This document shows, in pieces, positions 16,459 to 28,898 of a stretch of 64,000 nt of DNA. The notes below the pieces were generated by a model, which made no database searches, was not told the origin of the DNA, and saw nothing but the letters and a program-made list of their open reading frames with translations. Within the stretch, counting starts at the first letter, position 1. Each line of letters starts with the position of its first letter. This DNA is from Escherichia phage Phi1, in sequence record EF437941; one strand, written 5' to 3'. The translations under genes and the position numbers were made by a program.

Positions 16459-17055
16459 TTATTTGGTAGTACCGTCAATAAAATGTTTACGGCACACAGA
16501 AACATATTTATCCTCTGCACCAACTTCTATTTGAGCACCATCGCGAATAACATTACCATCTTTATCTACTCGAAGGACCATTGTTGCTTTCTTGCCACAA
16601 TGACAAATACCCTTCATTTCGACCAGCTTATCGGCAAATGCCATTAATGCCGCAGATCCTTCAAATAGATTGCCCTGAAAGTCAGTGCGAAGGCCATAGC
16701 ACAGTACAGGGATATTTGCATCATCAACAAGCGCACACAAGCCTAAAACATGCTCTTTAGTCATAAATTGGGCTTCGTCTACAAAAACTGCATCTGGACG
16801 CCATCGATCCGGTCTACGCTTACCTAACGATTCACGATAAACCAAGTCGAAAAGATCATCAGATTTAGTGAAGGTGATCGCTGGAGCACTTAGGCCAATT
16901 CGGGAAACGACTTCACTTTCTGAATCTCGATTATCAATCGCTGGCTTAAGAATTAATACTCGCATATCACGTTCGGTATAGTTATAAGCACTTTGTAATA
17001 GGGAAGTTGATTTGCCAGCGTTCATAGATGCATAGTAGAAATATAATTGCGCCAT
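16459..17055 (-). CDS. tk: thymidine kinase
   Basis: P-loop MNAGKST, FVDEAQF and a C-terminal Cys cluster typical of thymidine kinases. Confidence 0.95.
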   Translation of the reverse strand: MAQLYFYYASMNAGKSTSLLQSAYNYTERDMRVLILKPAIDNRDSESEVVSRIGLSAPAITFTKSDDLFDLVYRESLGKRRPDRWRPDAVFVDEAQFMTKEHVLGLCALVDDANIPVLCYGLRTDFQGNLFEGSAALMAFADKLVEMKGICHCGKKATMVLRVDKDGNVIRDGAQIEVGAEDKYVSVCRKHFIDGTTK

Positions 17056-17348
17056 TAATTAATCTCCAAAAATCCAGCAAGACCTAAACCGATATAAGTC
17101 CATATACCAATAAAAAAGATGTTAATGCTCATGGCAAGGATAAACCCTTTCAGCGTTTTGGGATACCCAACCCAATATTCCCGACCATCTTCTAACCGGA
17201 TCAACTTATTGCCTTGCGAGTCCATATCAACTACAACATGTTTATTTCGAGATTGCACTAGATATTGTTTTACAATCTCTACACCCGCCATAATAACAAT
17301 AACGAAAATAAAAGTCCACACAACAAGATTAATGATAGTCTCAAGCAT
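17055..17348 (-). CDS. hypothetical membrane protein
   Basis: Two hydrophobic helices; tiled ORF. Confidence 0.5.
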   Translation of the reverse strand: MLETIINLVVWTFIFVIVIMAGVEIVKQYLVQSRNKHVVVDMDSQGNKLIRLEDGREYWVGYPKTLKGFILAMSINIFFIGIWTYIGLGLAGFLEIN

Positions 17349-21273: not shown

Positions 21274-21308
21274 TAAAACGAAAAAGCCAACCCTTTTCGG
21301 ATTGGCTT
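21274..21308 (-). terminator. intrinsic terminator after the GrcA-like gene
   Basis: Hairpin AAGCCAATCCGAAAAGGGTTGGCTT plus TTTTTCGTTTT on the minus strand. Confidence 0.7.
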
Positions 21309-21870: not shown

Positions 21871-22355
21871 TAGTTGATACCTAAGCCAATGAAAATAGGT
21901 TGGTCTTCTACATTACCCATCCCAACACTAAGTCGATTTACTTCTAAAAACTGCAATACGCTGTCAGTAAATCCGCGCATGGTAGTATCTAGGATAAAAA
22001 TTGTTTTGTCAAGACTACGACCTCGCCATGTGATCGGATTCAGGAAAGTTCGGATCGACGTACAATCTACATTTGAAATATTTACATTTTCACCGCGACC
22101 GCGATCTCGGATCGTTTTGACATGTTCCCGCGTTGTTGAAACGATAAAGACACTATAGCCTTTTCGCGTATAATGATCATATAACTTGATTGTAGCGTCT
22201 GTATGCCCTGTTTGACGGCCTAAATTGATTGAGACGATGGAATCTAGGTCATCAGCAAAATTGCGTCGCTTACGGCGTTCTATGATGCCATTTACGGCAG
22301 ATACACACGCAGCATAAATCAAATCTTTACTTTCTAATTTTACATCAATATTCAT
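21870..22355 (-). CDS. hypothetical protein
   Basis: Tiled ORF; GGAG RBS just downstream of a GC hairpin. Confidence 0.5.
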   Translation of the reverse strand: MNIDVKLESKDLIYAACVSAVNGIIERRKRRNFADDLDSIVSINLGRQTGHTDATIKLYDHYTRKGYSVFIVSTTREHVKTIRDRGRGENVNISNVDCTSIRTFLNPITWRGRSLDKTIFILDTTMRGFTDSVLQFLEVNRLSVGMGNVEDQPIFIGLGIN

Positions 22356-22417
22356 GGTAAAGTCTCCAGTGAACGGGGAGAGATCCTTAGATGGTCTCCC
22401 CGTTGATGGTTAATATT

Positions 22418-22807
22418 TTATTTTTGGTCTGGGTATTTGCTGTGTGGTAATTGTAGATGAGGACCATCTTTAAACGATACCCAATCCCCACCCCATTCAA
22501 CAGGAACACCCAATTCTCGACCAGCTTGTTTAAATGCATCAGCGATCATGCGGTAATATTTCATATTCCATGTATCTTTATCTTTCGGATACGCTACAAC
22601 GTCAACCGCGAAACCGTGAAGATGACGAGATTTCATAGTCTTAGATTTACCTTCCGCAACATATTTCTTTTGCGTTGCGAGACTACGCACACCTTCCGTA
22701 ATACCAAAATCGACCGGAGTCAGTTCTAACGCACGATGAACGACTTTTACCAGGTCTGGATGTACACCAACAAGCCGATCTTTGCTTCTTTGAGATAATT
22801 TAAACAT
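22418..22807 (-). CDS. endolysin, L-alanyl-D-glutamate peptidase (peptidase M15 family)
   Basis: SRHLHGFAVDV and WGGDWVSFKDGPHLQL motifs typical of Zn-dependent M15 phage endolysins. Confidence 0.8.
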   Translation of the reverse strand: MFKLSQRSKDRLVGVHPDLVKVVHRALELTPVDFGITEGVRSLATQKKYVAEGKSKTMKSRHLHGFAVDVVAYPKDKDTWNMKYYRMIADAFKQAGRELGVPVEWGGDWVSFKDGPHLQLPHSKYPDQK

Positions 22808-22835
22808 TATTCACCCCCTTTGTGAGTGATAATAT

Positions 22836-23027
22836 TTAGATTCCGGCGATCCTGCATAGAGTTCTTGTATTAGCACCAATAAGGATAGCATTAACGACAA
22901 CCATTCCCCAATCAACCCACGGATTATTATAAATGTTAAATCCGTTTGTTAGGCCAAATACAAGCATTCCAGTACACATACTCAGAGCAACAATCAACAT
23001 CACGGTAAAACCAAATGCAAATCTCAT
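22836..23027 (-). CDS. small membrane protein
   Basis: 63 aa, two hydrophobic helices; member of a tandem array. Confidence 0.45.
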   Translation of the reverse strand: MRFAFGFTVMLIVALSMCTGMLVFGLTNGFNIYNNPWVDWGMVVVNAILIGANTRTLCRIAGI

Positions 23028-23028
23028 A

Positions 23029-23295
23029 TCATTTTCCTTTTCTCTGTTTACGTTTATAAAAGTAATACATTACATCATCACGTCCGGTGATCCAACATGC
23101 TAGGGCAGTAAACAGGTTTACAATTCCCAACACACCTACTGACGCGGCGCTGTCAACAGACATAGGAACAGTAAAGGCCATAGCTAACATAGCAACGCCA
23201 CAAATGACATTAAGCACCATTATAATAAGACCGAAGAAAACCATTGTCAATCCTCCCAAATAAGAAAACCAACAATCACGCCAGTGATAAGACAT
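23029..23295 (-). CDS. small membrane protein
   Basis: 88 aa, hydrophobic helices, basic C-terminus. Confidence 0.45.
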   Translation of the reverse strand: MSYHWRDCWFSYLGGLTMVFFGLIIMVLNVICGVAMLAMAFTVPMSVDSAASVGVLGIVNLFTALACWITGRDDVMYYFYKRKQRKGK

Positions 23296-23438
23296 GATGC
23301 GCCGCTAATAAGACAACCCGCGCCAAGTGATTCCCACCAGATCAGAGAAGCGACAATAACGCAAAATCCCCAGACTACCGCAATCACAACATAGGCAATG
23401 GTCGCCCAAAACATATATTTGTTCATAATAAACCCCAT
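23247..23438 (-). CDS. small membrane protein
   Basis: 63 aa, hydrophobic. Confidence 0.4.
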   Translation of the reverse strand: MGFIMNKYMFWATIAYVVIAVVWGFCVIVASLIWWESLGAGCLISGASCLITGVIVGFLIWED

Positions 23439-23611
23439 TCACCAAACAAATAAGAAAAAAGCCATATCAACAGAAACGAGGCAATTGATCCGGCAAGCAA
23501 AATGATATTAGAGAATCCGCCGTCTATCCAGGCGACAAAACAGAATACGCCAGTATAGAAGCATAAACCCATTACAAAGCATACTATAAGCAACCATAGA
23601 CAAAACGCCAT
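23423..23611 (-). CDS. small membrane protein
   Basis: 62 aa, hydrophobic. Confidence 0.4.
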   Translation of the reverse strand: MAFCLWLLIVCFVMGLCFYTGVFCFVAWIDGGFSNIILLAGSIASFLLIWLFSYLFGEWGLL

Positions 23612-23669
23612 AGAAAGCCCTCCATCGAGATAAATTAGTGCGGGTAGGGGACTGCACTACCCGCTTTGT

Positions 23670-23830
23670 TAATCAACGCAGAGCTTGTTCTAGCGCGATC
23701 CCAAACCATCCACAAACAACGCCCATACAGACAGCTACAAGAAGATTCATTCTCTCTTTAGGGATCATTGCAATCATAACAACAACCATACAGAAAGCCA
23801 TTACCATTGAAGTTAACATTTGTTCAACCA
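23670..23830 (-). CDS. small membrane protein (~52 aa, below ORF-track cutoff)
   Basis: Met-rich hydrophobic minus-strand ORF filling the gap; coordinates approximate. Confidence 0.3.
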
Positions 23831-23833
23831 TTA

Positions 23834-24166
23834 TCACACCTTTAAAGTCATAGACGCATAAACATTAATGCCAGGCCAGTTAGGATCGCAATTATACTCA
23901 ACATCCCACAAATAAAGCGGTTTAGATGTATCAGCCAAGTTTTTAAAATCTTCTACCCACATTTCAATGCTATATGATGGATAAACTAGGCTGTCATATC
24001 CTCCGTAACGTTGGCCTACTGGTCGGTCAGTAAAAACTACCTCAAGATCCGGTAATTCTTTTTCAAGGATAACCGCCAGCGCATAAATCAGACGGTCTTC
24101 CTTGTTACGCTGCCGAAGGACCGTTGTCAGTTGGTTTTTCTGGTTCACTAGCAAGCACCTCCACAT
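23834..24166 (-). CDS. hypothetical protein
   Basis: Tiled ORF; start uncertain. Confidence 0.4.
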   Translation of the reverse strand: MWRCLLVNQKNQLTTVLRQRNKEDRLIYALAVILEKELPDLEVVFTDRPVGQRYGGYDSLVYPSYSIEMWVEDFKNLADTSKPLYLWDVEYNCDPNWPGINVYASMTLKV

Positions 24167-24425
24167 TTTCACAGAATGAAATTTTCACAGACACAATTTT
24201 ACCATAAGTGAAGAATGAATATACATTATCGATATATTCAACGTCACCTACAATCACATCAAACTGCGGATCAGCAACCGCCGCAACATATTCTACCAGT
24301 TCATCAAGAGAATGCAACTTAATTTCATCAATTCGGCTGTATTTGGTTGCATCTTTGATTTTAAAACCACGTTCTTTCAGCTTATCAATTAGAATTTCAC
24401 GCGGAGTTTCAAACAGTTTGCTCAT
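24105..24425 (-). CDS. hypothetical protein
   Basis: Tiled ORF with RBS. Confidence 0.45.
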   Translation of the reverse strand: MSKLFETPREILIDKLKERGFKIKDATKYSRIDEIKLHSLDELVEYVAAVADPQFDVIVGDVEYIDNVYSFFTYGKIVSVKISFCENVEVLASEPEKPTDNGPSAA

Positions 24426-24446
24426 AATATAATCCTCACATTAAAT

Positions 24447-24647
24447 CTAAAATTTGTTAACGACGAATTGCATAATTAGACTAATCACAAACATTGCAAA
24501 CCAAGTATAAATGCAACAGATAAAAGCTACATACAATTCAATCTGGTCAGAGAATACACCGGGTAAAAGCATTAGCAAAATAACAACAGTAAAGACGCTA
24601 GCGATACCCGCAACAAAACCAATATCATTTTTACTAATCGTCATCAA
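24447..24647 (-). CDS. small membrane protein
   Basis: 66 aa, two TM helices. Confidence 0.45.
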   Translation of the reverse strand: MMTISKNDIGFVAGIASVFTVVILLMLLPGVFSDQIELYVAFICCIYTWFAMFVISLIMQFVVNKF

Positions 24648-24853
24648 GTCACCGTTTTGTAAAGAAACACAATAAAATCCAAGACAAGAAAGACAGTGTA
24701 AATGATCATCGTCAAGACAGTAAACACTGTCAAATTTTCATCGTTAGTTAATTCATAGTCGCCCATCCATACAATCACAAGATATAGCATTGAAAGAATG
24801 GAAGCACCTACGAAGTTAAAAAACATATTCTTGAGCGTCATATTAACAACCAT
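24644..24853 (-). CDS. small membrane protein
   Basis: 69 aa, two TM helices; ATGA overlap. Confidence 0.45.
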   Translation of the reverse strand: MVVNMTLKNMFFNFVGASILSMLYLVIVWMGDYELTNDENLTVFTVLTMIIYTVFLVLDFIVFLYKTVT

Positions 24854-25025
24854 CGCGGCTTAAGTCAACAGCAATTGCATACAGCATAATGAATATGCTA
24901 GCAGATCCAAGAATCAATACACCCTCACATTTTGAAACTCGCTCATCAAAATGTAACATTATCCATCCGAGGATGTTAAAGGCGCAGACCGCGCCTATGT
25001 TCGCTAACCAATTAATCTTTTTCAT
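24843..25025 (-). CDS. small membrane protein
   Basis: 60 aa, two TM helices. Confidence 0.4.
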   Translation of the reverse strand: MKKINWLANIGAVCAFNILGWIMLHFDERVSKCEGVLILGSASIFIMLYAIAVDLSRDGC

Positions 25026-25033
25026 AATATACC

Positions 25034-25360
25034 TTAGAAAGAAACAGTTTTCAAGAAATCCAGATTTTCAGTACCGAAAACAGAAAAGTAGTGTTTTCCT
25101 TTTTCGGTTTTAGAGAAAGCGATTGTCTTCTCTACATGGTGACGGAAGCCAGACAGACGATCACCCAGGTCAAGGCGGCAAGCGTAAGTAGTGCCGTTTT
25201 CGAAAGTAACCTCGATTTGAGTTTTGTCATATTCGCTTTCATAGGCTTTTGCTGCCGCGTCCTGTGCTTTACGCTCGAAGTCTTCGAAGTGGAATACTTC
25301 GTTTGCGTTAGCGAATACAGAAGATTCAGAGAAGATAACTTTAACAGATACTGGTTTCAT
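25034..25360 (-). CDS. hypothetical protein
   Basis: ORF behind stem-loop promoter ~25403-25431 and AAGGAGTATCAAA-ATG. Confidence 0.55.
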   Translation of the reverse strand: MKPVSVKVIFSESSVFANANEVFHFEDFERKAQDAAAKAYESEYDKTQIEVTFENGTTYACRLDLGDRLSGFRHHVEKTIAFSKTEKGKHYFSVFGTENLDFLKTVSF

Positions 25361-25402
25361 TTTGATACTCCTTAGTAGTTCGTGTTTCGTTTCGATGGGT
25401 GT

Positions 25403-25431
25403 ATTATGCTATACACCCTCTTGTGTGTCAA
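25403..25431 (-). promoter_or_regulatory. early promoter with stem-loop (PeSL-like)
   Basis: TTGACA-N17-CATAAT; inverted repeat GGGTGTAT/ATACACCC around the -10. Confidence 0.55.
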
Positions 25432-25439
25432 CAACTTTT

Positions 25440-25628
25440 TTAGTCTTTTTTCATAATTTCTAGAGCAGTTTCTACAGCACCTTTCCAACCCTCCCACATA
25501 ATGGACATAGTAATGAAGTTAAAGCACCCGCAGGAATCAACCTTTTTAGAGATAAACCATTCAACAAATCCTTCGCTCATACCATGCTCTTTAGCGGATT
25601 CGCGTAATTGTTCAATTTGGTCTTCCAT
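25440..25628 (-). CDS. hypothetical protein
   Basis: Tiled ORF. Confidence 0.45.
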   Translation of the reverse strand: MEDQIEQLRESAKEHGMSEGFVEWFISKKVDSCGCFNFITMSIMWEGWKGAVETALEIMKKD

Positions 25629-25637
25629 AGTATCACC

Positions 25638-25826
25638 TCAACACTTAACGTTATTCAAACGATTTTGAAAGTACATATAGCAAGCATAATTTTGCTTTGG
25701 TTGTACCGTATCAGATAGACACGCTTTTACAGCCTCGCGGTCCGATGGATCTACACCCTCAGCTTTAAGTAATGCTAAAATCTGGTTATATCGTACTCTT
25801 AGTTGTACTAATGGTTTATCCCCCAT
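25638..25826 (-). CDS. hypothetical protein
   Basis: Internal ATG after GGGGGT RBS taken as start (track 25892). Confidence 0.4.
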   Translation of the reverse strand: MGDKPLVQLRVRYNQILALLKAEGVDPSDREAVKACLSDTVQPKQNYACYMYFQNRLNNVKC

Positions 25827-25836
25827 ATTACCCCCA

Positions 25837-26064
25837 TTATAGTTGATCAGCAATGTATGCGGTGCATTTGCGGAGTTTAGCCATAGCACCACCTTTCATG
25901 TCGCTTGCGCCTACAATGTTCATGATCTCTAAGCGATCAGCCGGATTCAGTCTAGTAGCCCAGATCTGGTTAGCCAGTTCCATTTTACCCATCTGCGGTT
26001 CCATCTCAAACAGTTCACGCTCAAAGTCGATAATTTCTTTTGCGGCGTCTTTAAAGTTAATCAT
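25837..26064 (-). CDS. hypothetical protein
   Basis: ORF behind stem-loop promoter ~26094-26122. Confidence 0.5.
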   Translation of the reverse strand: MINFKDAAKEIIDFERELFEMEPQMGKMELANQIWATRLNPADRLEIMNIVGASDMKGGAMAKLRKCTAYIADQL

Positions 26065-26093
26065 TTTGATTCTCCCGTTTCGTTGATGGTTGT

Positions 26094-26122
26094 ATTGTAG
26101 GGGAGTTATCCTCCCCTGTCAA
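26094..26122 (-). promoter_or_regulatory. early promoter with stem-loop in spacer (PeSL-like)
   Basis: TTGACA-GGGGAGGATAACTCCCC-TACAAT. Confidence 0.6.
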
Positions 26123-26130
26123 CACTTTTA

Positions 26131-26316
26131 TCAGAAATATGCAATATAGTTTGCCAGTCCTACAGAGTCATCATTCGGCATTGCTTTTACTGCCAGTTCA
26201 AACCCTGCTTCAACTTTCTGTTTAGCGGATTCTTCGTTATAACCCCAGATTACCAGAATAGCTACTACGTTTTCTTTGCTTACTGCTTTCAGTGCTTTAG
26301 TGATGCGACGTGCCAT
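26131..26316 (-). CDS. hypothetical protein
   Basis: ORF behind promoter ~26363-26391 and conserved leader. Confidence 0.5.
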   Translation of the reverse strand: MARRITKALKAVSKENVVAILVIWGYNEESAKQKVEAGFELAVKAMPNDDSVGLANYIAYF

Positions 26317-26362
26317 AATTTGATTCTCCGTTTAAGAAAGTGTGTTTCGTTTCGATGGGTGT

Positions 26363-26391
26363 ATTATGCTATAGGCCGGATCTGGTGTCAA
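26363..26391 (-). promoter_or_regulatory. early promoter
   Basis: TTGACA-N17-CATAAT followed by the conserved leader. Confidence 0.5.
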
Positions 26392-26417
26392 CAACTTTTT
26401 TAAAAAAATTTTAGGCA

Positions 26418-26447
26418 ATAAAAAAGCCACTCCGAAGAGTGGCTTAT
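26418..26447 (-). terminator. intrinsic terminator
   Basis: Hairpin AAGCCACTCTTCGGAGTGGCTT plus TTTTTTATTGCC on the minus strand. Confidence 0.7.
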
Positions 26448-26590
26448 AGGGAAGGTAGCGAATCTTCCTTGTCTCCAACCTGCTAGCGGCCTAGCAAGTG
26501 AATGCTTTAGCGTACCGGATCGCCCACATACGCTGTAATAAATGCGGCTAGGTGACGTCCAAATCATTCTAACCGCGCTGTCTTTAGTTC
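26448..26590 (-). ncRNA. candidate small non-coding RNA (late-promoter-like motif to terminator, no ORF)
   Basis: TATAAATA on the minus strand at ~26581-26588, ~130 nt with local hairpins (GGAAG...CTTCC, GCTAG..CTAGC), then a strong terminator. Confidence 0.3.
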
Positions 26591-26594
26591 ACTA

Positions 26595-26813
26595 TTATTT
26601 ATATCGCTTTCTCTCGCGACGTTTTTGATCTTCTTCCTTGATAGAGTTAAATGCATCAAAAAGACACATGACACTGATAATGAACATAACCGTATTTTCT
26701 ACGATATCCAACGGCTTCGCATCAGTACAGATCACCCAAACGGTAAGAAATGCAAATAAGGCAGAAGAGATCACAAGCATGATACTTGCTAAGATATAAA
26801 AAGTCATTTTCAT
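26595..26813 (-). CDS. small membrane protein
   Basis: 72 aa, hydrophobic N-terminus, basic tail. Confidence 0.45.
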   Translation of the reverse strand: MKMTFYILASIMLVISSALFAFLTVWVICTDAKPLDIVENTVMFIISVMCLFDAFNSIKEEDQKRRERKRYK

Positions 26814-27004
26814 GGTTTTACCTCAATTCTTCGATATTCATCACACATCCACGCAGTAAGCAAGAATCCCAACACATAAGCAACAAAATACGTTAATGCT
26901 TCTTCTGGTTCGGTGCTATGCGCCATCATCAGACCAGCGAGAAAGGTCTTAACAATTACATTTAAAATAATTAGCCACGCAAATAATTTCATCGTTTGCC
27001 CCAT
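26810..27004 (-). CDS. small membrane protein
   Basis: 64 aa, two TM helices. Confidence 0.45.
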   Translation of the reverse strand: MGQTMKLFAWLIILNVIVKTFLAGLMMAHSTEPEEALTYFVAYVLGFLLTAWMCDEYRRIEVKP

Positions 27005-27228
27005 TTCGGACGAGTCTTTTCAAACTTATACATTACGCAACAATCTCGAATCATCCACGTAACAAGAGCACCAGTCAACACAGACAACACACAGAAGAAG
27101 TAAAACGGTCCGGTTGCATTATCAACATGAGCAAGCCATGTAAAGAAAACACATGCAAGGAATGTAAAGAACATCATAAAACACAAGAAAGCAAAATATT
27201 TTATGCTACTCATAGCGCCACCATACAA
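26989..27228 (-). CDS. small membrane protein
   Basis: 79 aa, hydrophobic. Confidence 0.45.
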   Translation of the reverse strand: MYGGAMSSIKYFAFLCFMMFFTFLACVFFTWLAHVDNATGPFYFFCVLSVLTGALVTWMIRDCCVMYKFEKTRPKWGKR

Positions 27229-27316
27229 CAGATCATAAGAAAACCCAACGCAATAAGAATTGCATCAAATTTAGTGAACTCCGGTCCACCTATCAACATC
27301 ATTCGTTCCTGTTCAG

Positions 27317-27559
27317 TTATAGATCACAGAGCCATCTTAAAGCACCACATAAAGCGAGCAGAATACTAGGTATAAACGAGATCAAAACAAGTTTGCAAAA
27401 ATCATCTAAGGTAACACCGGAATAGCTACCAACTGTAACAACACCGATCATAAGACACAGAAAGAAAACAAATGCAATCAGAAACAAAGTATTGCTAAAC
27501 AGTTTAGTGATCATTAGACACCCCACGACGGTCAATTTCAAAAACTTTTTTATCATCAA
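27317..27559 (-). CDS. small membrane protein
   Basis: 80 aa, hydrophobic. Confidence 0.45.
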   Translation of the reverse strand: MMIKKFLKLTVVGCLMITKLFSNTLFLIAFVFFLCLMIGVVTVGSYSGVTLDDFCKLVLISFIPSILLALCGALRWLCDL

Positions 27560-27707
27560 CGAAGCATGTCACAACTGCCTCGTTGACTTCCGCAAATTGT
27601 TGTGTTACCCACTTAAGGTCAGATCGAAACAATGTTCTATTAATAACAAATGTTTTACCGCTCTTATCCTTACCCATAAATTTTGCTTTAACCATATCCA
27701 ATTCCAT
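27504..27707 (-). CDS. hypothetical protein
   Basis: Soluble 67-aa ORF, tiled. Confidence 0.4.
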   Translation of the reverse strand: MELDMVKAKFMGKDKSGKTFVINRTLFRSDLKWVTQQFAEVNEAVVTCFVDDKKVFEIDRRGVSNDH

Positions 27708-27719
27708 ATTATCACCTTA

Positions 27720-27878
27720 TTTGCTAATCGCTAAACCTAATCCGAAGAGAGCACCCGACGCTACAGTATACCCGAAAGTTTCAAAGGCAGTAAAGATATC
27801 TAAGCCACCAGCTAACAGAGTTGCAGTAAACAGAGTACCAGCTACGAACATAAAAGTTTTACCGATAAATTTCATTTT
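27720..27878 (-). CDS. small membrane protein (~52 aa, below ORF-track cutoff)
   Basis: ATG after AAGGAGAATCAAA directly behind stem-loop promoter ~27907-27935; coordinates approximate. Confidence 0.4.
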
Positions 27879-27906
27879 GATTCTCCTTTCGTTTGTTTGT
27901 GGGGGT

Positions 27907-27935
27907 ATCTTACTACCCCCGTTTCATGTTGTCAA
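27907..27935 (-). promoter_or_regulatory. early promoter with stem-loop (PeSL-like)
   Basis: TTGACA-N17-TAAGAT; inverted repeat GGGGGTAGTAAGATACCCCC. Confidence 0.55.
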
Positions 27936-27941
27936 CTATTT

Positions 27942-28316
27942 TTAAGAATATTTTACTTCGTCTACAATGTCTTTCATGACATTGATTTCCATTCCGGTCA
28001 GAACACGTTGGAACATGTGCTGAACATACGCTTTCAGGTATTCATTTGATGGCTTGCTATCGAAAGTCTTTTTAGTGTAGTAGTCATCACCGAAAGCTAC
28101 TGTAATTACATTTTCGTCGTCGTTCCAAGCGATATAAGCAAATTTGCCGTTATCCCAGAAGCGAGCACTAATTGCTACTTTTGTTGAATCGAATCCTACT
28201 TCGCTGTGAGATTCAAGAACTACTTGCGTGCCAGTTTCTTTATGAATGTAGTAGCGGGATACTAAGTCAAAGTTACGGGTGTAGTGACATTCGAACTTAT
28301 CTTTAAACATCATCAT
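27942..28316 (-). CDS. hypothetical protein
   Basis: ORF behind promoter ~28355-28383; start at ATG after GGGAGAATCAAAA. Confidence 0.5.
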   Translation of the reverse strand: MMMFKDKFECHYTRNFDLVSRYYIHKETGTQVVLESHSEVGFDSTKVAISARFWDNGKFAYIAWNDDENVITVAFGDDYYTKKTFDSKPSNEYLKAYVQHMFQRVLTGMEINVMKDIVDEVKYS

Positions 28317-28354
28317 TTTTGATTCTCCCAAGTGTTTTTCGTTTCTATGTGTGC

Positions 28355-28383
28355 ATTATGCTATAGTCGTTTATGGTTGTCAA
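28355..28383 (-). promoter_or_regulatory. early promoter
   Basis: TTGACA-N17-CATAAT directly downstream of the terminator. Confidence 0.5.
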
Positions 28384-28387
28384 CACA

Positions 28388-28420
28388 TAAAAACAAAAAA
28401 ACCCCGAAAAATTTTCGGGG
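28388..28420 (-). terminator. intrinsic terminator after the 1-57A-57B unit
   Basis: Hairpin CCCCGAAAATTTTTCGGGG followed by TTTTTTTGTTTTT on the minus strand. Confidence 0.75.
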
Positions 28421-28427
28421 TATAGAA

Positions 28428-28898
28428 TTACAGTTTGGTCGTCCACTCCAGGTCTAGATCTTCGACATATTCATGAGATCGGACAATCTCTAAATCGAAC
28501 TCTAGGTCAGTGCCAAATTTACGCGCACCAACATCATAAGAAAGCGTGATATGCGGTACATATTCAGGATAATCCCACGTCGCACCTAAAGCAGTTCCGA
28601 TATCGTGTCTGAATTGCATGTAGTCGCTTTCAAATGCCAACACAAGCGCATTAGTACCGGATTGAGTTTCAAACACTTTCAGATGGCATAGAGAGCCTAA
28701 AAACTTTTCACCCTCTTCTGGGATAAACGGAACATAGACACGAGAATATAAGATAGTGCTATGCAGTTTATCACGAGGAACGGCATTAGGCAGATCGTAG
28801 AACTCCTGCAATTTTTCAATGCGGTCTAGTGTATCCTCAGTGAATTTAACAGCCGCATATGTACCTTTAACGGATTCTCGAAACGGGGTCATAATCAA
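28428..28898 (-). CDS. 57B: gp57B-like protein
   Basis: Size (156 aa) and position immediately downstream of 57A in the 1-57A-57B order of T4; synteny only. Confidence 0.45.
   Translation of the reverse strand: MIMTPFRESVKGTYAAVKFTEDTLDRIEKLQEFYDLPNAVPRDKLHSTILYSRVYVPFIPEEGEKFLGSLCHLKVFETQSGTNALVLAFESDYMQFRHDIGTALGATWDYPEYVPHITLSYDVGARKFGTDLEFDLEIVRSHEYVEDLDLEWTTKL

Follow-up and report, generated by a model that had tools for sequence, protein, structure and literature searches.

What fourteen very short hydrophobic genes, lined up on one strand of a T4-type phage genome, do for the phage that carries them is the question raised by a stretch of 64,000 nucleotides of Escherichia phage Phi1 (record EF437941), hereafter called the window. 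The window belongs to Krischvirus (Straboviridae, RB49/GEC-3S-like, T4-type phages of E. coli), and 57 phage records, all of them Krischvirus (RB49, GEC-3S, JSE and others), match positions 22000-28500 at 90-98% identity by megablast. The 14 genes, here numbered m1 to m14, are placed between a Peptidase_M15_4 endolysin gene (22418-22807) and genes 57B/57A/1/3. A first-pass annotation had read them as tandem arrays of tiny two-helix membrane proteins in an early region, and had offered superinfection exclusion or immunity, holin/antiholin-like modulation and anti-defence as possible roles. We find that the blocks are not a repeated unit but 14 independent accessory genes that have accumulated in this lineage, and that a role in superinfection exclusion or anti-defence, argued from the sequence, is plausible.

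Fourteen clustered genes for small membrane proteins

All of the minus-strand small hydrophobic open reading frames (ORFs) described before were recovered, at essentially the same coordinates, and they form blocks of five, three and six genes. The third block had been counted as five genes and actually holds six membrane ORFs (m9-m14), with the soluble dmd gene between m13 and m14. Lengths had been put at 50-90 amino acids (aa) and are 30-74 aa with the annotated starts. The first block begins with m1 (22836-23027, 63 aa), which has one strong transmembrane (TM) segment and a short second hydrophobic segment and lies 28 nt upstream of the endolysin gene. It is followed by four 2-TM hairpins, m2 (23029-23244, 71 aa, with a basic C-terminal tail; the longest ORF reaches 23295), m3 (23247-23426, 59 aa), m4 (23423-23611, 62 aa) and m5 (23673-23831, 52 aa, with two alleles). 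The second block consists of the 2-TM hairpins m6 (24447-24644, 65 aa), m7 (24644-24841, 65 aa) and m8 (24843-25025, 60 aa). The third block contains m9 (26595-26813, 72 aa), the last gene of the dmd operon, with two hydrophobic segments and a highly charged C-terminal tail; the 2-TM hairpins m10 (26810-26992, 60 aa) and m11 (26989-27213, 74 aa, with a basic C-terminal tail); m12 (27210-27302, 30 aa, or 36-41 aa in some annotations), with a single C-terminal TM segment; the 2-TM hairpin m13 (27317-27514, 65 aa), whose first 11 nt are shared with the end of dmd; and m14 (27717-27875, 52 aa), glycine-rich and hydrophobic, which is the first gene of the dmd operon and has a strong Shine-Dalgarno (SD) motif (AAAGGAG). 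Earlier annotations call these ORFs "hypothetical protein", or "putative membrane protein" in phage W115. In AV108 (L111 3337-3732) m7 and m6 are annotated as one ORF of 396 nt, and in Whisky (L113 4365-4670) m4 and m3 as one ORF of 306 nt; these could be gene fusions or artefacts of annotation or sequencing.

The concentration of such genes is far beyond chance. Of the approximately 21 small TM genes annotated in the RB49-type genome, 14 fall within a run of 22 genes among about 277 (hypergeometric P = 2.4e-13; 6e-11 after window correction), and the highest count per window in 200,000 permutations was 10. The remaining seven or so annotated small TM genes of the 164-kb RB49 genome are single and scattered (p006.1, p018, p046, p088, p167, p211 and p270), and a six-frame scan revealed that most other hydrophobic small ORFs are out-of-frame artefacts within long genes. 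Apart from m1-m14, the window was found to hold a single genuine small membrane gene, the RB49p088 homologue (17055-17348, minus strand, 97 aa), which has TM segments at both ends and adjoins tk.

An SD-like motif lies 5-10 nt upstream of the start in all 14 genes. The ATGA overlaps reported as frequent occur at m4/m3, m10/m9, m11/m10 and m12/m11, the m7/m6 junction is a TGATG overlap, and m2/m1, m3/m2, m8/m7 and s1/m5 (s1 being a soluble gene described below) are 1-2 nt apart, giving the translational-coupling sub-blocks m4-m3-m2-m1, m8-m7-m6 and m12-m11-m10-m9. The ORFs are intact essentially always across ten complete relatives (10/10 for most genes), and two metagenomic contigs, diverged by about 9-11% at the DNA level, carry all of these genes intact and in unchanged order. 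In all, intact copies are seen in 13 genomes and these two metagenomic relatives. The pooled ratio of non-synonymous to synonymous substitution rates (dN/dS) is 0.27 (175.5 synonymous versus 169.5 non-synonymous changes, normalised for sites), with values of 0.11-0.56 for single genes. Therefore, based on the SD motifs, the intact ORFs, the dN/dS value and the gene order conserved in the metagenomic contigs, m1-m14 are real protein-coding genes.

The proteins have grand average of hydropathy (GRAVY) values of 0.45-1.81. Two hydrophobic segments were found in 12 proteins, ten of them by a 19-residue Kyte-Doolittle window; by the same window m1 and m14 have one segment, accompanied by a second uncharged hydrophobic run, and m12 has one segment. 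The one or two TM helices per protein proposed at first sight are thus borne out by Kyte-Doolittle segments and charge distribution alike. The charges follow one layout, with Lys/Arg at the N-terminus, an acidic turn between the helices and often a basic C-terminal tail, and because of this layout and the positive-inside rule the hairpins are predicted to be N-in/C-in. AlphaFold2 models of m6 (helices 5-30 and 34-64; predicted local distance difference test score (pLDDT) 79) and m11 (helices 3-31 and 35-67, pLDDT 71) are both helix-turn-helix, and a Foldseek search with the m6 model against viral structures returned generic hairpins only (E>0.8). Variable columns are equally frequent in TM cores and elsewhere (27% each), 120 of the 129 variable TM columns are restricted to apolar or small residues, and almost all variants, including an m6 allele of 34% identity, keep their number of TM segments. 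T occupies 47% of second codon positions.

Near-consensus sigma70 promoters are found on the coding strand at 28383-28355, 27935-27907, 26391-26363, 26122-26094 and 25431-25403, and intrinsic terminators at 28421-28401, 26445-26424 and 21308-21284; the annotation of GEC-3S carries the same promoter and terminator signals. The promoter at 27907-27935 (minus strand; TTGACA-17-TAAGAT, a 10/12 match, also annotated in GEC-3S) drives m14-dmd-m13-m12-m11-m10-m9, and this operon ends at the terminator at 26424-26445, which is invariant in 15 genomes. The promoter at 25403-25431 (minus strand, 11/12 match) drives an operon running from a gene for an LPD25-domain protein through m8-m7-m6-s2-s1-m5-m4-m3-m2-m1, the endolysin gene, vs.8 and further to the terminator at 21308. 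Sigma70-type early promoters therefore head both operons, in agreement with the early region assumed in the first-pass annotation, and no exact late promoter TATAAATA was found upstream of the blocks, nor any enrichment of it. We conclude that m1-m14 are very probably translated as early inner-membrane proteins.

The promoter at 25403-25431 is situated within a promoter/stem-loop (PeSL)-type cassette at 25382-25442. This cassette is one copy of a family of 61-nt direct repeats, D1, with further copies at 26342-26402 and 28334-28394 (67-87% identity), which contain three of the early promoters and correspond to the PeSL cassettes known from RB49/phi1. PeSL elements are strong early promoters and recombination sites in these phages (Arbiol et al. 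2010, PMC2839356). A further 11/12 sigma70 match (TTGACA-17-TATTAT) at the m3/m2 junction (23222-23250, minus strand) could be an internal promoter for m2-m1-endolysin or could have arisen by chance.

Orphan status and allele diversity

Shuffle-calibrated Smith-Waterman comparison of 153 pairs gave a best z of 3.8, for m2 and m11, which have a tail of the form W-x-x-RD-x-x-VMY-x-F-x-K...GK in common. Comparison of ortholog profiles by hhalign reached a probability of 4.5% at best, and the 14 proteins belong to 14 separate small PHROGs with function unassigned (15016 for m1, 15232 for m2 and 15282 for m12, for example). A tandem paralogous family was rejected on these three results. The term "tandem arrays" would imply copies of one unit, but the genes are not detectably homologous to one another.

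Searches beyond the locus gave a similar picture. Nothing above cutoff was obtained for the 14 proteins in Pfam, NCBIfam or PADLOC, and tblastn of all 14 against 50,697 phage genomes found matches only in the 57 Krischvirus records. Among 5.8e9 proteins, m1 has only five clusters at 90%, all Krischvirus-type and of at least 84% identity, and m6 likewise only five, of at least 74% identity. An exhaustive HMMER search with m11 against 1.84e9 representatives retrieved its own family and three spurious long repetitive proteins only. No homology was detected between m1-m14 and T4 e.2, e.3, e.4, trna.4, vs.5, Imm, Sp, 61.1 or 61.4. An origin from the host or a prophage was rejected, no blastn match being found in 5,426 complete E. 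coli genomes.

The membrane genes evolve faster than the genes around them. Soluble neighbours have a dN/dS of 0.10, and the pooled value of the membrane genes is 2.7 times as high; in aa identity to one relative (L017), the membrane genes reach 73-91% versus 84-97% for soluble genes. The fastest members are m13 (0.56) and m4 (0.49), m1 and m3 stand at 0.24 each, and the four genes m2 (0.16), m9 (0.16), m14 (0.13) and m11 (0.11, the most conserved member) are constrained to the same degree as ordinary soluble genes. Discrete alleles of m4, m5, m6, m7 and m13 assort independently among genomes. A second allele of m5, 81% identical in aa, is present in JSE, JK32 and G2248. In JSE and Whisky the m6 gene is replaced by the 34%-identical allele, which still encodes a 2-TM hairpin; SSG23 and Makalu have related alleles. 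The m7 gene is absent from JSE, SSG23, Makalu and Whisky, disrupted at its N-terminal end in W115, JK32 and PTE-Eco09, and represented by a 74% allele in FL04 and G2248, while m8 is N-terminally truncated in FL04 and m13 has an allele at 75-77% in SSG23, Makalu1 and JEP8. The genes m1-m14 are under purifying but relaxed selection, with alleles reassorting, and the allele diversity of the array, read from the sequences, is arms-race-like. The soluble orphan s6 (25837-26064) also has two alleles, about 76% identical in aa and differing by indels (RB49, JSE, SSG23, Makalu1 and G2248), so allele shuffling extends beyond the membrane genes.

Possible roles at the membrane

Two neighbours of the membrane genes bear on their role. 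The dmd gene (27504-27707, minus strand) encodes a soluble antitoxin against RnlA/LsoA with 46% identity to T4 Dmd, and is an anti-defence gene. The first gene of the m8-to-m1 operon (25034-25360, minus strand) encodes a protein with a "large polyvalent protein associated domain 25" (LPD25; Pfam PF18840, E=3e-14), one of the domains of polyvalent proteins, which is 97-100% conserved across the genus. In addition, tblastn (E<=10) detected no counterpart of T4 imm or sp in RB49 or the window, and this vacant niche plausibly counts for a conflict role. Because of the way the alleles behave, the neighbourhood of dmd and LPD25, the lack of imm and sp and a lysis role that is already filled, we favour an accessory role in conflict, by exclusion and/or anti-defence, for at least several of the 14 genes, at a confidence slightly below the midpoint. 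The best explanation overall, which we put forward with the same reserve, would be that m1-m14 are independent accessory hairpins, made early, that act in conflict at the membrane.

In this proposed course, two strong early promoters would transcribe the array within minutes of infection, and translation would be coupled within the sub-blocks. Each hairpin would insert into the host inner membrane, with its Lys/Arg-rich N-terminus and its often basic C-terminal tail in the cytoplasm and the short acidic turn in the periplasm, and would presumably bind one membrane-embedded target through helix-helix contacts. The likeliest targets would be (i) the DNA-translocation pore of competing phages, as with T4 Imm and HK97 gp15, and/or (ii) membrane-acting defence effectors or sensors of the host; the lysis machinery would not be a target.

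The closest model for the first target is T4 Imm, a 9.3-kDa early inner-membrane protein that stops genome entry by binding the tape measure gp29 and has been likened to HK97 gp15 and colicin immunity proteins (bioRxiv 10.64898/2026.03.06.709160). The array proteins are, by prediction, likewise early small inner-membrane proteins. However, Smith-Waterman comparison of Imm with m1-m14 gave z values of at most 1.6, that is, no homology. Membership of the family of Sp (Spackle), a periplasmic inhibitor of gp5 lysozyme that is secreted, found no support either, with no significant tblastn match and none of the 14 proteins having a cleavable signal peptide followed by a soluble domain. Imm-like exclusion specifically is rated separately, as rather doubtful. 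We rate as less likely still an "immunity battery", in which a dozen or more unrelated Imm-like hairpins, produced at the very start of infection, would each block the tape-measure pore by which a different type of competing phage penetrates the inner membrane, or would each neutralise a different abortive-infection effector that acts at the membrane; such a battery would explain why the hairpins are many, unrelated, fast-evolving and reassorting, and why none tracks the phage's own tape measure.

The gp29 tape measure (RB49 gene 29, L014 46253-47986) has a very divergent second allele in JK32, AV108, PTE-Eco09 and Whisky, which aligns over the first 27% only, at 80-84%.

Several points weigh against a conflict role. 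No residue of the array is fixed in the four genomes with the divergent gp29 and absent elsewhere, which argues against self-exclusion co-evolving with the phage's own tape measure; this co-variation is a proxy that covers the phage's own tape measure and not the exclusion of other phages. Since no characterised protein, Imm and Sp included, is homologous to any of the 14, the conflict role is argued from architecture and context only. Guilt by association with dmd and LPD25 is weak, as the plastic region collects unrelated ORFans. Nearly all 14 genes are retained in nearly all 57 genomes, and such retention is more that of a genus core than freely exchangeable conflict genes should show. A literature search turned up no transcriptome or proteome of a Krischvirus.

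Some of the same observations would suit host takeover, in which the hairpins inhibit or re-tune inner-membrane machines of the host (a transporter, FtsH or another protease, the divisome, respiration or control of the proton motive force) and so optimise the infected cell instead of countering defences or rival phages. SPO1 gp56 and the small membrane regulators of bacteria are models for such an action. The architecture and early expression would be the same as in the explanation that we favour, near-universal retention of most members in 57 genomes agrees with it, and the low dN/dS of m2, m9, m11 and m14 (0.11-0.16) fits conserved host targets. However, targets in E. coli and Shigella are conserved, yet the array has deep alleles (m6 at 34%, m13 at 75% and m5 at 81%), and a dN/dS 2.7 times that of the neighbours is unexpected for most members. 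Other coliphage genera with the same hosts lack homologues. Host takeover is unlikely on balance.

A further alternative sees the genes as young, weakly functional ORFs, formed de novo or decayed, in which T-rich sequence gives hydrophobic helices that are tolerated and build up in a plastic region. The strict orphan status, the absence of paralogy, the 47% T at codon position 2 and the substitutions, which fall equally in TM and non-TM positions and mostly just keep hydrophobicity, are as expected for such ORFs, and a PeSL-bounded hyperplastic region is a known collector of ORFans (PMC2839356). Nevertheless, each gene that has enough substitutions gives a dN/dS clearly below 1, m2, m9, m11 and m14 are constrained like soluble genes, the ORFs are intact and in order in a relative diverged by about 11%, and the SD motifs and coupling are conserved. 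We regard this alternative as very unlikely; it concerns origin and is compatible with a function.

A role in lysis was among the suggestions of the first-pass annotation, and the form it would take is that m1-m5 especially are holins, pinholins, antiholins or modulators that arrived with, or serve, the horizontally acquired M15 endolysin. The endolysin gene (22418-22807, minus strand), identified by Pfam, annotations and T4 synteny, replaces T4 gene e directly downstream of m1 and on the same transcript. Class II holins and pinholins (phage 21 S68, for example) are also of about 70 aa, with two TM helices and N-in/C-in topology, and Kyte-Doolittle segments, charges and the AlphaFold2 hairpins all give the array proteins this small two-helix form. 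Relatives of the endolysin, 47-66% identical, occur on about 80 unrelated viral contigs of 5-90 kb, many of which have holin-like ORFs ahead of the endolysin gene; the nearest of these upstream ORFs often encodes a 2-TM protein of 90-135 aa and in some cases follows a 3-TM ORF. Pfam holin families give sub-threshold matches to m2, m5 and m11 (E 0.05-0.9), all far under cutoff at 10-14 bits versus 27-29, and neither Pfam nor PHROGs has a holin match above cutoff. However, RB49 already has a complete T4 lysis set, comprising holin t, antiholin rI, spanins pseT.2/pseT.3 and rIIA/rIIB. The promoters are of early type only, unlike those of a late-expressed sole holin, and blocks 2 and 3 lie 1.6-5 kb from the endolysin gene. 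A phmmer search of m1-m14 against six-frame translations of 79 related-endolysin loci gave zero matches at E<=10, on which the genes were rejected as holin relics. The sequence comparison suggests that the M15 endolysin was acquired horizontally without a neighbouring holin. Holin/antiholin-like modulation is thus disfavoured, and we consider it improbable.

The last alternative, that the hairpins are subunits of one or more hetero-oligomeric complexes (a channel or scaffold, for example) whose fixed ratios are set by translational coupling, draws on the tight coupling within the three sub-blocks and on the co-retention of nearly all members, in conserved order, in most genomes, but has little chance, as alleles of neighbouring genes assort independently, the loss of m7, the 34% swap of m6 and the truncation of m8 occur without a visible compensating change in a partner, and rates differ five-fold between adjacent genes.

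Neighbouring features and comparison with known systems

Blocks 1 and 2 are separated by two soluble orphans, s1 (23834-24148, 104 aa) and s2 (24105-24425, 106 aa), which overlap by 44 nt. Both are well conserved (dN/dS 0.08-0.11) and have no Pfam match. The dmd gene lies here between 57B and the endolysin gene. In T4, dmd has 61.4, sp and gene 41 as neighbours, and neither sp nor 61.4 was detected in RB49 or the window. Upstream of the endolysin gene (22811-22838, minus strand), a 6-bp hairpin (TCACTC...GGGTGA) covers the endolysin SD and is preceded by a near-late-promoter TcTAAATA; the arrangement recalls the early/late control of translation in T4 gene e.

Between the m9 stop and the next promoter, at 26424-26594 (minus strand), is a conserved non-coding stretch with four hairpins and the terminator. 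Its RNA folds with z=-3.2 (0/200 shuffles fold as well), and 7% of its sites vary across 15 genomes versus 16% in m9 and 18% in the adjacent PeSL, the variation being limited to the apex of one hairpin. A search of Rfam gave sub-threshold matches only. The syntenic locus of T4 holds tRNAs and the small stable RNAs rnaC/rnaD, and the stretch is a candidate 3'-end small RNA. No tRNA gene was found in the window.

No part of phage "dark matter" is less understood than the small membrane proteins, and the mechanism of T4 Imm itself is only recent. Fourteen orphan hairpins, conserved in the genus and carried by two early operons of which one includes an anti-toxin gene, offer a convenient test bed, which could separate the exclusion of competitors from the disarming of membrane defences and the re-tuning of host membrane machines. 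Phage-therapy cocktails make use of RB49-like phages, and exclusion or anti-defence factors, if such they are, would bear on cocktail design and the prediction of host range. If the effects are only marginal, the locus would be a clean example of plastic regions collecting hydrophobic orphan ORFs.

Besides the holins discussed above, the locus can be compared with four known systems. The first is the syntenic interval of T4 itself. The T4 e...57B interval, which contains nudE, e.2-e.8, eight tRNAs, rnaC/rnaD, segB, trna.2-4 and ipI, is a classic hyperplastic region. Similar to the array, T4 e.2 (one predicted TM segment), e.3 and e.4 (two each) and trna.4 (a 2-TM hairpin of 61 aa) occupy the position from the endolysin gene to 57B. 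However, they are four genes rather than 14, are mostly longer (102-130 aa) and reach a best z of 3.1. With 57B as anchor, IMG/VR yielded only two other T4-like genera, in which 57B is immediately followed by a single 2-TM ORF and a dense array is lacking. Therefore, based on the comparisons with T4 and these genera, the dense cluster is a Krischvirus-specific expansion of a feature present in miniature elsewhere.

The second system is the PeSL-ORFan cassette (PMC2839356; Comeau et al. 2014, PMC4122927), which comes from the same RB49/phi1/JSE group and likewise consists of database-orphan ORFs in a hyperplastic region between core genes, with flanking PeSLs. The two papers deal with ORFans that occur singly and each have a PeSL of their own, and membrane proteins are not mentioned in them (PMC2839356; PMC4122927). 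In the present locus, by contrast, up to 11 genes depend on one promoter and are translationally coupled. A PeSL lies immediately upstream of m14 only; the one at 25382-25442 is followed by the LPD25 gene rather than m8, and the remaining 13 ORFs lie inside coupled polycistronic operons. The type of region is known, and small membrane ORFans are a known feature of plastic regions in T4-type phages; these particular ORFs are not discussed in the PeSL papers or by Nolan et al. 2006, and no description of their clustering, common architecture and selection pattern was found in the literature searched.

T4 Imm (83 aa) resembles the array proteins as a small early inner-membrane protein with hydrophobic helices and a charged C-terminal tail, the layout of m2, m9 and m11. 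It differs in that no tblastn match links the two, that imm stands alone between genes 42 and 43, as against 14 unrelated genes at another locus, and that no allele here tracks the variation of gp29.

The fourth comparison is with bacteria, in which the loci of bacteriocins, colicins, contact-dependent inhibition (CDI) and type VI secretion systems carry arrays of small, fast-evolving and often membrane-embedded immunity genes, each against one attacker. The array shares with them the many small fast-evolving membrane proteins lined up in one locus. However, these arrays are bacterial and their genes usually belong to recognisable families, whereas the phage locus has neither a cognate toxin nor paralogy. 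Were the hairpins to form an immunity battery as described above, the locus would be a viral counterpart of the orphan immunity-gene arrays in bacteriocin and CDI loci.

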